This document shows, piece after piece, positions 52,231 to 56,632 of a stretch of DNA of 64,000 bases. The translations under genes were made by a program, and so were the position numbers. The stretch's first letter is position 1; the number at the start of each line of letters is the position of its first letter. This DNA is from Candidatus Bathyarchaeota archaeon. Its GTDB lineage: Archaea; Thermoproteota; Bathyarchaeia; 40CM-2-53-6. Where the stretch lies: positions 64,001-128,000 of the forward strand of contig CAWHWX010000018.1 in assembly GCA_963833125.1 (NCBI GenBank), in the 5' to 3' direction. The notes beneath the pieces were generated by a model. The model ran no database searches and was not told the DNA's origin. It worked only from the letters and a program-made list of their open reading frames with translations.

Positions 52231-53857
52231 ATGCAATTGATCAATCGCGCGACCCGAACAATACTGTTGGTCCTTCATTGTCCTCGCCATCCTGATGGTT
52301 GCGCTCAACGCTTTCGAATCAGCCCAGGCTCAGGCGGGCTTCGATTTCAGCGTGAGCTTAAATGGGTACTCGCTTGCGGTAGCCCCGAACCGTTCAGGGT
52401 ATGATCAAGTAACCGTTGCATTAGTTTCCGGTTCCCCTCAAACTGTGAACTTAACCTCACAGATTTCACCACAGGATGGAGAAGTGTCAGCGTATTTCGC
52501 TCAACCAGCGGGAAATCCATCATTCGTGACAACGCTCGTTGTCAACGCTCTGGCAGCCTCACCTGGCAAGATGTATACGATCTCCGTTACGGGCATGTCC
52601 CAAGGACTAACGCGGCAAGCACTTCCACTTGCGTTAACGATCAGCTGCCCTCAAGGGCCCTGCCCAAAATTGCACGTTGATTGGACGGACAAAACCTCTT
52701 ACTCACAAGGTGAATCGATCCAGTTCAGGGGATCAGGATTTTACCCAACCGATGTAGCAGCATCTTGCTTGACAACCGAGAACAATGGCACGGCCATATG
52801 CCAGAACCAGGCCTCCGCTGATGGTCAGGGGGATGTTTCAGGTTCGATGGTTGTAACCCCAAAAATACTGCTTGGCCCACAACAATTCTACCTGAAGGAT
52901 CTGACAAACGACCAACAATCCCCCAAGGTCCCGCTTACCATCCTCCAAGCGTCCCCTATCCTCACGACCGCCTATGTGGGACAAGGCTCCGTATCTCCAT
53001 CTTGCCCATCGGGCTGCGCACAACCTGTAGGGGAACTCGTGAACGTTACCGCTAGTCCGGCTGCAGGCTGGACATTCGCGGGCTGGAACATCACAGGGGC
53101 CACCTGCTTCGGCGGGCTTAGTTCAAACCCCTGCATGTTCACGATGCCAAATAACGGAGTGTCTGCCAACGCGAACTTCGTCCAATTTCAGACTCTCACA
53201 ACGACCTACATAGGACAGGGCGCAATCTCGCCCTCCTGCCCCTCAGGCTGCCAGGTGACCGTCGGGTCGACAGTATCAATCACGCCCACTCCATCTCCGG
53301 GGTGGATAGTCTCCGGTTACCACTTAACGAGCGGAGTCACCTGTGGCCCTCAGCCAGGATTTACTTGCGGCTTTATCATGCCCAACGTTCCGGTCAATTT
53401 TCAAGTGATATTCACAGAAACCACAGTAACCGCCAAAACAACCCTGACCGTCACTTCCTCGGTCACAACGCCTGTGACAAGTACGTCCGTGTTCGGAAGC
53501 ACATCCTCATCAACGATTACGATAATCACGGAATCGACGACCCAACTAAGCGGCACCCAGACAACAACCACACTATACTCGACTGGCAGCACAATAAACA
53601 CGCAAACACAATACTACGCGATAACTCAACTCTCGACGTTCACATCAACTACTACTTCGACTAGCTTGAACGTGCCCGATCCCCTAGTTGAACTCGCACT
53701 CGCAGCCATTATCCTCGTCTCATCGGCAGTTATCGGGGTTAGTCTAATCAAACAATTCCCAAGGCGGGGCATAATTTCATGCTCTAACTGCGGCTTCAAG
53801 AACTCCCATCCCGGAAAATATTGCTTGGGCTGCGGTGAACCCTTGAAGAGGACTTGA
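52231..53857 (+). CDS. surface-anchored protein: Ig-like domains, two InlB-B-repeat-like domains, Thr-rich stalk, TM helix and cytoplasmic zinc ribbon (signal peptide split by an indel near 52275)
   Basis: Repeats LTT.Y.GQG..SPSCPSGC...VG..V..T..P..GW; Thr/Ser run; TM; CSNCG...YCLGCG. Confidence 0.75.
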
Positions 53858-53862
53858 CCGAA

Positions 53863-54403
53863 ATGGCTCGCCTCCCCTCAGCTCGCGTGAAGATCTCGAT
53901 TACTCATCATATTGGTCTGCTTTCTTGGCTTCTATTCATCACTGAGCATCTCAACAGCTCAGTCAACCTACACTTCAAACCTGACGCAACTCACAACGAC
54001 CTTCTCTACCACCACGAGTTTGACAACGATAACTAGTCCAACAATATTCTACACGACTACGACAGAGACTTTGAACTCAACCGTTCAGGGGACCCAAACC
54101 CTCGCCCAAACTTCAGTGATAATGGTTACGTCGAACTATACCATTATTCTTGGCGGTACGCTAACGCAAACCATCACGTCAATAGTCACCCAGGTTTCAA
54201 CTCAGACAACCCCACTGCTCGGAAACATTTGGGGCGAATCCTTAGCTATTATTCTACTTCTGAGCGCGATTGCAAGCTTTATTGTCCCTAGAGTTCGCTC
54301 CGTCCGTCCAAGAGGAACAATTTGTAGCGAATGCGGTTATCGAAACCCGCCCTTCGCCAAGTCCTTCTGCGTCAAGTGCGGTCATTCTTTGGAGCCAACG
54401 TAG
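53863..54403 (+). CDS. small Thr-rich membrane protein with cytoplasmic zinc ribbon (possible indel near 53905)
   Basis: Signal-like N-terminus, Thr-rich stalk, TM, CSECG...FCVKCG. Confidence 0.7.
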
Positions 54404-54444: not shown

Positions 54445-54744
54445 CTACGACGCCACTCCAATTCTTCTCTTCGGTGAATGTTTCACGGAATAGTAGGGTG
54501 GTAACGCCTTAACTTCAAAGGTTCGATGGTTCTGCGTGGGGGCCTGACTAGTGTAGATATTTTGTTGGAACTGGGGGGATGGGAGTGGTTTGGTTTGGAA
54601 TTGTGTGTTGTTTCGTGTTGCAGCTGGATGCAAGAATGGCTGGCCGAAGGAATTGGTTTGTGTGAGCCAGAAGATAATTGGCAAAACTACGGTCACCGCT
54701 ACGAAGCCTGTGGCCATAACGAAGACTATAATGACTGCGTCCAT
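54445..54744 (-). CDS. hypothetical single-TM protein
   Basis: N-terminal hydrophobic helix and Gln/Pro-rich tail; TATA box about 50 nt upstream. Confidence 0.55.
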   Translation of the reverse strand: MDAVIIVFVMATGFVAVTVVLPIIFWLTQTNSFGQPFLHPAATRNNTQFQTKPLPSPQFQQNIYTSQAPTQNHRTFEVKALPPYYSVKHSPKRRIGVAS

Positions 54745-54798
54745 TATTGACTCGCCTGTCGATACATGTATCTACGTTAATATACACATGAGTTTATA
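54742..54798 (-). promoter_or_regulatory. promoter A (TATA box plus conserved TATCGACA element)
   Basis: Minus-strand TATAAA-N28-TATCGACA...ATAATGG, paralogous to 56948-57006. Confidence 0.55.
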
Positions 54799-54860
54799 TG
54801 ACTTTCGACAGTGACGATACATTTTTAAACACGCCTAGACACCACATTGCCCGACGATAA

Positions 54861-54971
54861 ATGAACAAGGACCTATCGAACTGGCTTAGAAAAAGGATGA
54901 CGCAAATAGATGAACGGGTTACAGAGCTCAAAGTGCGCATCCTAGATGGAGATGAGGTCAATGGCTGCTGA
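54861..54971 (+). CDS. 36-aa coiled-coil microprotein resembling the N-terminal helix of the downstream regulator (not in the ORF track)
   Basis: MNKDLSNWLRKRMTQIDERVTELKVRILDGDEVNGC; TTTTAAA box about 33 nt upstream; overlaps the next start. Confidence 0.65.
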   Translation: MNKDLSNWLRKRMTQIDERVTELKVRILDGDEVNGC

Positions 54972-55317
54972 CGATGAGCTGAAGAAATGGCTTGAATCAA
55001 GATTCTCAAAGATAGATCAACGCATCGGCAAACTGGAACAGACAATCGCCGAAAGCAAGCAACCTAGAATCCGCATAGCTTGGTACAGAACCCTGCTAGG
55101 CATGACTGAATTAGGCGGGAAAGCCGGAACCGAGAAACTCGCAGATCACTTAGGCATAAGCAGGAGCGTAATCAGCGAATACCTAAACCGAATGGAAGAG
55201 GAAGGCATCGTAAAACGCGATTTCAACGAGGACACAAAGGAAACCTCGCGCTACATCTGGCAAATCGATTGGGAAACATTGCCACCAGAAATCGCATCCC
55301 GACTCAGAAAAAAATGA
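54961..55317 (+). CDS. coiled-coil plus winged-helix transcriptional regulator
   Basis: TEKLADHLGISRSVISEYLNRMEEEGIVKR; SD-like GGAGATGA 5 nt before the ATG. Confidence 0.82.
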   Translation: MAADDELKKWLESRFSKIDQRIGKLEQTIAESKQPRIRIAWYRTLLGMTELGGKAGTEKLADHLGISRSVISEYLNRMEEEGIVKRDFNEDTKETSRYIWQIDWETLPPEIASRLRKK

Positions 55318-55390: not shown

Positions 55391-56527
55391 TCAGGGGATT
55401 ATTGGGATGCGGTAGAAGCTGGAGAGAAATGGCCTCATTGATCTTGAAATGTCGTCCACGTCGCAATCCACACAAGACGGATCCAAGCGCAAAGGTATTC
55501 TCTTACTCCCATCTGCCAGCTCAACCTCGAGCAAAGCGTGACCCGGAAGTTTCCGTTTCTCACGTGTAGTTGCATCAGCGTATGTTCCTGGGGGGAGGAT
55601 GAGGAAGTGCATTCGTCTGAACGCGAGGCTGGCCAGCATGGAAGCCAATAGAACGACCTTACAGTCGCAGTCGCCTCCCGTTTTCATGGTTTCCCAAGGC
55701 CATCTAACGTATTCACCGAATGACTCGCCTTTGTAGATCACTTTGTCGCGGGAATATTCGAAGACGAGCGTAAGAAGCCTAAGCTGATCCTGGAACGATA
55801 GTTCTTGCGCATCTTGCGGCTTTTCTCCTCCAAGTGCAACCGCACCTATGGTCGTGGTCAGCTCGTCTACGACCGAATATTCGGGGTGATCCTTCGCTTC
55901 GACTACTCTGTTTAGCATCGTCAAGGCCACTTTCATTGTGCGCGGATCAAGAATTTGCTGGGGTTCAAGTTCTTCGACCAACACCTGTTTGGCACCGCAG
56001 TAGCGGCAGTAGGGTTCGTCGGCCCCTATTGTCTTGTTACAGGTGTGGCAATTACGCATCCGTTCCACGAAGGCCGTTTCTTCTTTCTTAATGAGTCCTC
56101 TCTGCTGTAGTCGGGTGAGAGAGTCGATGAGTTGTTCCGTGGTTACGTTCAGATCAGTGGAAGTCCTTCGTATCGATATTCCACCATGATGATCCTCCAA
56201 ATACTTGAGCACGTGGCCGTCCATGTCGGATGATTCCGTTGTATCGAGCATGCGTACGTTTATTGTAGGGCCAGGTTTGCCGGCTTGAGTAACCTGTCTG
56301 CTTTCCACTCCGACATAGGGCAGGGAGGCCTTAGACGTAGTTTCGATGGACGGTTCCGGTGGTATGAGTGACTTGCCACAGTTGTGGCAGAACTCTGATG
56401 ATGCTAGATTAATGGCCTTACAGGTCGAACATGTAGTGAGCCGCTGGCCGCATACGCCGCAATATGCTTGCCTTTGCCGGGCTGCGGTGCCACATTGCGG
56501 GCATTTCTGTGTGTTCTGTTGGGCCAT
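55391..56527 (-). CDS. double zinc ribbon / wHTH / zinc ribbon / transglutaminase-like protein
   Basis: Six CxxC motifs; wHTH-like VLKYL...LIDSLTRLQQRGLI; triad GGDCDC, GHALLEV, LDP. Confidence 0.75.
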   Translation of the reverse strand: MAQQNTQKCPQCGTAARQRQAYCGVCGQRLTTCSTCKAINLASSEFCHNCGKSLIPPEPSIETTSKASLPYVGVESRQVTQAGKPGPTINVRMLDTTESSDMDGHVLKYLEDHHGGISIRRTSTDLNVTTEQLIDSLTRLQQRGLIKKEETAFVERMRNCHTCNKTIGADEPYCRYCGAKQVLVEELEPQQILDPRTMKVALTMLNRVVEAKDHPEYSVVDELTTTIGAVALGGEKPQDAQELSFQDQLRLLTLVFEYSRDKVIYKGESFGEYVRWPWETMKTGGDCDCKVVLLASMLASLAFRRMHFLILPPGTYADATTREKRKLPGHALLEVELADGSKRIPLRLDPSCVDCDVDDISRSMRPFLSSFYRIPIIP

Positions 56528-56632
56528 GCTGTAACGCCAGTGTATTCCAGAGTTGCATACAGCCGCCCCCACGGAAATGTAATGCTTTCGGGTTCACCGA
56601 ATTAATCCACTGCGCTGGATGGAGCGTCCTGA

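Follow-up and report, generated by a model that had tools for sequence, protein, structure and literature searches.

A 36-codon gene overlapping an archaeal winged-helix regulator gene resembles the regulator's N-terminal helix and probably tunes its product

Why should the gene for a small DNA-binding protein be preceded, and slightly overlapped, by a tiny reading frame whose product resembles the beginning of that same protein? The locus that raises this question lies on contig C18 of a 3.07-Mb metagenome-assembled genome (MAG) from a peat-associated uncultured archaeon (Candidatus Bathyarchaeota), within a stretch of 64,000 nt (contig CAWHWX010000018.1, positions 64,001 to 128,000 of the forward strand) that we call the window. 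A first-pass annotation of the window had proposed that an uncalled open reading frame (ORF) duplicates the oligomerisation helix of the winged helix-turn-helix (wHTH) regulator encoded immediately downstream. Our analysis suggests that this small gene probably tunes the regulator by pairing with it. The elements of the two genes, in window coordinates, are as follows.

54861..54971 (+): small gene (peptide ORF), ATG start, 36 aa, MNKDLSNWLRKRMTQIDERVTELKVRILDGDEVNGC
54948..54957 (+): Shine-Dalgarno (SD)-like GGAGATGAGG for the regulator, 3-9 nt before ATG 54961; peptide codons 30-32 (G30-D31-E32)
54961..55317 (+; frame open from 54946): winged-helix regulator, 118 aa, H0-H1-S0-H2-H3-S1-S2-H4
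54964..55053 (+): N-terminal helix H0 of the regulator, residues 2-31 (AlphaFold2 [AF2] helix; hhalign match over residues 4-30), the segment copied by the peptide
55075..55266 (+): wHTH core, residues 39-102, with recognition helix 68-80 and wing 84-102 (Pfam and AF2)
55285..55311 (+): short, almost invariant C-terminal helix H4, residues 109-117, PPEIASRLKKK

The regulator start at 54961 is the position common to all orthologues, and an in-frame ATG at 54946 is kept in the closest relatives only. With the start at 54961 the regulator frame differs from that of the peptide ORF and the two overlap by 11 nt; this overlap, and the SD-like motif in the last codons of the ORF, are both seen in the sequence as the first-pass annotation had described them.

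The relationship between the peptide and the regulator helix is supported at several levels. BLASTP of the one against the other gives an ungapped alignment with 9 of 29 identities and 18 of 29 positives (E 2e-5 for this single comparison), the alignment quoted beforehand is correct, with nine identities over its 24 positions, and hhalign of seven peptides against eleven regulators places peptide residues 2-28 on regulator residues 4-30 with a probability of 93.5% (E 2.3e-7). When a profile of 36 peptides is run against all six frames of the 3.07-Mb genome, the best match after the peptide itself (3e-20) is the regulator N-terminus 100 nt downstream (1.6e-5), and the next has an E of only 0.04. 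That third match was rejected as a generic coiled-coil ORF on contig C25 with no adjacent regulator; it encodes 74 aa rich in Lys, Arg and Glu (C25:20148-20372; L115 1148-1372, minus strand) and is the sole other weak match to the peptide profile in the genome. Searches of the same genome with the regulator and with the peptide found no further paralogues. Of the eight invariant peptide columns, all except M1 fall opposite an invariant regulator column, and in six of these seven the residue is identical. The invariant residues common to the two helices are W, L, R, I, R and L.

There are also consistent departures between the two. The peptides have K/R at position 10 (33 of 36) where the regulators have E/D12 (36 of 37), and M13 (34 of 36) where the regulators have F15 (37 of 37); other fixed differences are S/A/Q6 against K/R8, Q/E15 against K/R17, R/H/K26 against A/S/T28, and D/E/G31 against K/R33 (peptide first in each case). 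The charge swaps noted earlier thus hold in part: R10/E12 is a family-wide exchange, but K24/E26 is present in only 18 of 36 peptides and E22/K24 is inconsistent. Because these differences are fixed across the family, the duplication must be older than the sampled diversity, and the similarity is not being maintained by gene conversion. The comparisons together indicate that the peptide gene is a paralogue of the regulator's N-terminal helix, which arose when the 5' end of that gene was duplicated, and that the peptide has retained from H0 the hydrophobic residues of the a/d core as well as W, R, R and D/E, together with a fixed surface of its own.

Nothing else of the regulator appears to have been kept. 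AF2 predicts one helix at peptide residues 3-34, with a predicted local distance difference test (pLDDT) score of 88, and the peptide is accordingly modelled as a single amphipathic helix. A DNA-binding domain was found neither by a Pfam search nor in the AF2 model, and the only Pfam match (KIP1, E 0.099) is far under the curated cut-off, in agreement with the original description.

Is the ORF a genuine gene? We assembled an orthologue set from 10 strong matches (E ≤1.4e-57) among 60 relatives searched, 12 loci of species-representative genomes and the best 80 of 129 metagenome loci. Eight of the 103 loci were dropped for having less than 200 nt upstream, and the other 95 collapse to 75 distinct upstream stretches. 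By a rule of our own, a peptide was scored as intact if it reached 35 or more with the hidden Markov model, contained the core motif, ran for 24 residues or more from the Trp and ended in a stop codon at -6 to +35 of the regulator start. Forty of the 75 distinct loci have such an orthologue ahead of the regulator, two have a short version, 12 have recognisable remnants and 21 have no match. The intact peptides are 31-94% identical to that of the window; W8, L9, R12 and R19 are invariant, M13, I16 and L23 nearly so, and the a/d core together with W8, R12 and R19 is invariant even among peptides only 31-50% identical to the window's. The intact ORFs stop at -2 to +32 of the regulator start, in two frame relations. 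At the aligned start position (n=50) there are 42 ATG, three TTG and two GTG codons; L084 and L085 use an ATG two to three codons upstream, and the remnant in L025 has no start.

The substitution pattern is that of a protein-coding sequence. Ratios of non-synonymous to synonymous rates (dN/dS, Nei-Gojobori) were taken from 45 distinct sequences, some with a partly degenerate second half, over the 38 of 990 pairs (not independent of one another) in which the proportion of synonymous differences (pS) of the regulator is unsaturated at 0.05-0.5. The values are 0.14 for peptide codons 2-20 and 0.37 for codons 21-27, against 1.15 and 1.62 for the frames shifted by +1 and +2; the regulator helix and wHTH have 0.06 and 0.04. 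Synonymous divergence is about 0.5 in all three regions (dS 0.48 for the peptide and 0.50-0.52 for the regulator), and because the two are equal no additional constraint at the nucleotide level is visible. With all 990 pairs pooled, the proportion of non-synonymous differences (pN) is 0.33 against a pS of 0.74 in frame, and pN is approximately equal to pS out of frame. The proposal that the uncalled ORF is coding is therefore upheld by purifying selection acting in the annotated frame.

Three intervals, 54866-55021, 54866-55002 and 54901-55204, are covered without an indel by contigs that come from RNA libraries of related strains and resemble the window at 90-99%. These contigs span the peptide/regulator junction, with the reservation that DNA carry-over in the libraries is possible. 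They are contigs only, from four RNA-library runs of one peat study; in the wider search for matching runs, none contained half or more of the sampled words, with small shares in 14 of 16 rows. There is no RNA-library contig over 54600-54865, and contigs from one study neither place a transcription start nor count as evidence of absence. Two of them, from different samples, share a left end at 54866, which is 5 nt into the small ORF, and adapter-like letters flank one of the two.

The first-pass annotation had itself raised the prospect that correction of an indel would fuse the two ORFs into one protein with a tandem helix, and a related view is that the ORF is a decaying relic still open by chance. 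Decayed versions do exist: L008 is frameshifted, L049, L068 and L082 are truncated, and L029 has a deletion of 2 aa. However, the two-ORF layout is present in 40 distinct intact sequences from independent assemblies, and since the frame relation takes two forms across lineages a recurrent assembly indel is ruled out. The RNA-library junctions are free of indels, dN/dS is well under 1 in the annotated frame only, and no fused tandem helix was found in the 11 regulator homologues inspected (the longest, shortest and most distant of 72; 64-207 aa). We thus regard an artefact or pseudogene as extremely improbable, and the comparisons indicate that the 36-codon ORF is a real gene. A programmed frameshift giving a two-helix regulator was considered and rejected, as the frame relation varies between lineages.

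How old is the arrangement, and how widely is it kept? A rapid, unrooted maximum-likelihood tree made from the DNA of the regulator gene (75 rows) has intact peptides on both sides of the midpoint. The fixed differences place the duplication before the divergence of the sampled regulator family. The peptide gene has decayed in several forms. There is a frameshift in L008, a helix-breaking G-P in L009 and truncation in L049, L068 and L082. Internal deletion has left a mini-ORF in L006 (MISGEEDEW) and L007 (MGVMKTDMKLGGKPH), in which the old start and the old overlapping stop are kept. In L086 and L090 the gene is completely absent and the regulator is directly behind the promoter. The mini-ORFs of L006 (~1470-1505) and L007 (~1450-1500), at 9-15 codons, look as if an internal in-frame stretch had been lost from the peptide gene, and they also keep the distance to the TATA box.

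A regulator profile matches 14 of 401 genomes of the class, the window's included, many of these genomes being incomplete; 13 of 58 genomes in the window's family match, against 0 of 342 in the other families searched. All 23 matches of the peptide profile in 59 family genomes are either the ORF ahead of the regulator (nine genomes) or the regulator N-terminus (14), and no orphan copy away from a regulator was found among them. One genome, G330, has two regulator copies (contigs C16 and C9; L109/L023 and L114/L025), one with an intact GTG-started peptide and the other with a degenerate remnant that has no start codon. We note also that two contigs on which this locus is present and which are placed in the window's genus (L021 and L027; G022 C21 and G010 C167) sit in MAGs titled Candidatus Acidiferrales bacterium and Candidatus Acidoferrum sp., probably through a binning or labelling error in the public records.

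What kind of protein is the regulator? Only two generic Pfam models pass their cut-offs, HTH_24 (28.9 bits, cut-off 21.9) and HTH_5 (28.1, cut-off 22), and it falls under the gathering cut-offs of the MarR families (MarR, PF01047, 22.5 against 24.6; MarR_2, PF12802, 24.6 against 27). HTH_Cmi2_C (PF24270) is likewise sub-threshold, at 20.8 bits against a cut-off of 27, over residues 9-87, which span the N-terminal helix and the wHTH, and it is also listed for some distant regulator homologues (P0052, P0063, P0064 and P0066). An AF2 model built from 37 homologues (pLDDT 88) has helices at 2-31, 39-50, 57-64, 68-80 and 109-117 and strands at 54-56, 84-88 and 98-102, with weaker confidence in the linker after H0. 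The closest solved structures are dimeric proteins of MarR, ArsR and Lrs14 types (HosA, 8aga, 1.1e-5 and AbfR2, 6cmv, 8.9e-5, by hmmsearch), and Foldseek matches are at ~1e-4 to 1e-3; 3cuo YgaV is also among these relatives.

The predicted topology, H0-H1-(S0)-H2-H3-S1-S2-H4 with a wHTH core between N- and C-terminal helices, is that given for Lrs14 proteins in the part of PMC11841832 that deals with them, where the dimer is made by H0 and H4 of both monomers. Lrs14 proteins have a long C-terminal H4 that forms an antiparallel coiled-coil dimer, whereas H4 of the present regulator has only nine residues; with a long H0 (30 residues) and a short H4 it is the reverse of Lrs14 in this respect. 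In a heptad register assigned by hand, L11, F15, I18, I22, L25 and I29 of H0 occupy a/d positions, with Arg at g and Glu/Asp at e, and this pattern, taken with the MarR/ArsR/Lrs14-type relatives, suggests that H0 may serve as the dimerisation or oligomerisation element.

How would the two genes be expressed? Three elements upstream of the pair are informative.

54758..54775 (no strand): near-perfect palindrome GTCGATACA/TGTATCTAC, an inverted repeat with 9-nt arms, 89% complementary, no spacer
54813..54829 (+): repeat copy GACGATACAT at 54813-54822, abutting TATA box TTTTTAAA at 54822-54829
54853..54862 (+): GACGATAAAT, the third copy of the repeat, which takes in both the predicted transcription start and the peptide ATG

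We take TTTTTAAA to be the TATA box from the archaeal consensus. Among 18 aligned promoters the motif TG.CGATACA.TTTTAAAC has a conservation of 80% or more. The palindrome is conserved across the aligned promoters in the form CTGT.GA.AC..GT.TC.AC; the exceptions are L006 and L036, where the upstream neighbour is another one. It is a candidate operator of the regulator. Copies of the direct-repeat family begin at 54758, 54813 and 54853, and the regulator may act on its own promoter through these GATAC repeats; CGATACNNGTATC has only two occurrences in the genome, against one for a control. A GACGA-like motif precedes the peptide ATG in most loci.

The distance from the TATA box to the peptide ATG is 29-32 nt at most loci with an intact peptide; in the L083 group it is 24 nt. 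Given the usual archaeal spacing between TATA box and transcription start, the leader ahead of the peptide would therefore be only a few nt long, with a predicted transcription start at about 54852-54856, 5-9 nt ahead of the ATG. An SD-like 4-mer at -17 to -4 is present at the regulator start in 71 of 72 distinct loci and at the peptide start in 9 of 40, the control window of this count being a weak one as it lies inside conserved coding region. The Gly/Asp/Glu-rich tail of the peptide thus corresponds largely to the ribosome-binding site of the regulator read as protein, and this double use fits the higher dN/dS of the second half of the peptide.

A side observation concerns the other strand. 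A 99-aa ORF with an N-terminal hydrophobic segment (54445-54744, minus strand) is divergent from the regulator promoter, its start is conserved in L004 and L005, and a conserved TTTATAT at 54794-54800 beside the palindrome could represent a divergent promoter under the same operator.

The layout of the pair is also that of a coupled upstream ORF, with the peptide stop overlapping the regulator start and the SD-like motif inside the upstream frame, and the two may be translationally coupled. This raises an alternative in which the ORF acts only in cis: translation from the 5'-proximal ATG, terminating on the regulator start, would set regulator translation through coupling, reinitiation or occlusion of the SD, and the peptide would be a functionless leftover of the duplication. 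The stop/start overlap is indeed found in nearly all intact loci (stop at -5 to +14 of the regulator start, and at +32 in L094), and at several loci where the helix is gone a mini-ORF persists whose start distance and overlapping stop are unchanged (L006; L007, L078 and L079, all MKTDMKLGGKPH-like; L051 and L072). However, the purifying selection seen on the peptide is at the protein level and its dS is not below that of the regulator, the a/d core, W8, R12 and R19 persist in the most divergent peptides, and the regulator has its own SD-like motif at nearly every locus. Since some loci, such as L086 and L090, have no upstream ORF whatever, coupling is not required. We consider a purely cis-acting role to be quite unlikely.

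The proposed mechanism, which we favour at slightly short of an even chance, is that the peptide is a partner of the regulator in the manner of SinI and SinR, pairing with its N-terminal helix and altering its oligomeric state. Both products would be read from the one TATA-box promoter, the peptide from an ATG a few nt from the predicted mRNA 5' end and the regulator from a start inside the last peptide codons behind its own SD-like motif, and the two would be made side by side. The peptide would then most likely pack on the dimer interface of the regulator (H0, perhaps with H4), either replacing a second regulator subunit or lying beside it. The amount of DNA-binding-competent dimer on the GATAC-type repeats of the shared promoter would change as a consequence, as SinI does for SinR. 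The effect may be that of an antagonist or of a stabiliser. A structure prediction for the complex of regulator and peptide scored 0.02 against a mark of 0.32, was run without controls, and weighs neither for nor against binding.

A more specific version, which we offer tentatively, is that the peptide is an archaeal cis-encoded microProtein that captures the nascent regulator helix while one short-leader mRNA is being translated into both. Each transcript would then fix how much of the regulator can form DNA-binding dimers, and the regulator would have a threshold or delay built into the control of its own promoter.

Several observations weigh against pairing between peptide and regulator. 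The peptide is dispensable, with 35 of the 75 distinct loci having no intact copy. The intact/not-intact label changes at least nine times on the regulator tree, at least six of these being forced by well-supported branches; we read the changes as losses of an ancestral gene because remnants are common in the lineages without an intact copy. A search for regulator residues that co-vary with peptide loss gave only clade-linked differences, one example being H24 in a 15-row clade without the peptide. There is one recognisable TATA-box promoter ahead of the pair, and no separate input such as that of Spo0A on sinI is visible. The g/e charges of the hand-assigned heptads give no clear preference for a parallel heterodimer over homodimers, and in this register R26 of the peptide would presumably face K33 of the regulator. 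Finally, the account of AbfR2, a solved Lrs14 protein, in the relevant part of PMC11841832 gives H0 a minor part in the dimer, and because H0 contributes so little there its dimerising role in the present regulator is an assumption of ours.

Some of the same evidence fits a functional peptide that is not an antagonist, such as a structural co-subunit by which the dimer is stabilised or its spacing altered (acting as a co-repressor, in the way that Hha does with H-NS), a protein with some other partner, or one that associates with itself. Purifying selection and the conserved surface of the peptide (K/R10, M13 and R26) would suit any protein partner, and the supply of both products in constant proportion from one mRNA is more in keeping with a stoichiometric subunit than with a switch. 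There is precedent in Hha, which attaches to the N-terminal helices of H-NS and strengthens the effect of that protein, as set out in the part of PMC6936261 concerned with H-NS partners. However, the strict linkage in cis, with no orphan copies in 59 genomes, speaks against an unrelated target, and repeated loss of the peptide with no change in the regulator speaks against an obligatory subunit. We judge these possibilities to be unlikely.

The neighbouring genes are a separate matter. Those at 52295-53857 (+), 53912-54403 (+) and 55391-56572 (-) include genes for Ser/Thr-rich proteins ending in a hydrophobic segment and a zinc ribbon (matches to DZR or Zn_Ribbon_1), as well as one for a 393-aa protein in which several zinc ribbons are accompanied by a TackOD1 match under the threshold. 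A similar zinc-ribbon tail is encoded ahead of the regulator in L006.

The locus is a compact test system, with a peptide of 36 aa, a regulator of 118 aa and a 120-bp promoter with candidate operators, and sister lineages without the peptide are in effect natural 'knock-outs'. It is a clear example of a functional gene of fewer than 40 codons missed by gene callers, and it illustrates how an antagonist or partner of a regulator can arise by partial tandem duplication of the 5' end of its gene. The control of archaeal transcription factors by small proteins has, to our knowledge, hardly been studied.

How does the pair compare with known systems? In eukaryotic microProteins, such as Id proteins acting on bHLH factors and LITTLE ZIPPER proteins acting on HD-ZIPIII factors, a small paralogue keeps only the dimerisation element of its target. 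The peptide shares with these a single domain and the retention of only the presumed interaction element, and dominant-negative titration is putative here; the eukaryotic examples are separate, independently regulated genes, whereas here a 36-aa ORF in an archaeon overlaps the gene for its proposed target. The nearer analogues are prokaryotic, namely SinI/SinR and H-NST/H-NS, rather than the eukaryotic Id and LITTLE ZIPPER proteins to which the first-pass annotation had likened it.

H-NST of pathogenic Escherichia coli is also a paralogue cut down to an N-terminal interaction region and, in the part of PMC6936261 devoted to it, is proposed to counter full-length H-NS by interfering with its oligomerisation. 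As described there, H-NST is encoded elsewhere, on genomic islands, in contrast to the cis position upstream of the target seen here; it is larger than one helix, and H-NS is a nucleoid protein and not a wHTH regulator.

The sinI gene lies directly upstream of sinR and is in part transcribed together with it as a bicistronic mRNA, and SinI shares with SinR a heterodimer-forming surface through which it blocks SinR DNA binding, according to the sections of PMC3163267 and PMC3917956 on the pair. Both systems have a small protein with no DNA-binding domain that is homologous to the interaction region of the regulator (a presumed one in our case) and whose gene is directly upstream, here with an 11-nt overlap, one conserved TATA box and RNA-library contigs bridging the junction (DNA carry-over being possible). 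In those sections SinR is an Xre-type HTH protein with a C-terminal two-helix hook that SinI copies, whereas the present regulator is a MarR/Lrs14-like winged-helix protein with a copied single helix at its N-terminus, and sinI has its own Spo0A-controlled promoter, whereas here the genes overlap behind one apparent promoter. The host is a bacterium (Bacillus subtilis) in one case and an archaeon in the other, and a heteromer that abolishes DNA binding is known for SinI/SinR and putative here. Because the fold and the copied element both differ, the pair is best seen as an analogue of SinI/SinR and not as a member of that system. A full-text search of a limited literature collection found no archaeal regulator paired with a copy of its own interaction helix that has no DNA-binding domain. 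The principle is thus already known from SinI/SinR, H-NST and the eukaryotic microProteins; what appears to be new is the archaeal host, the winged-helix regulator, a copy consisting of one N-terminal helix, and an overlapping small gene with a short leader and no SD of its own.

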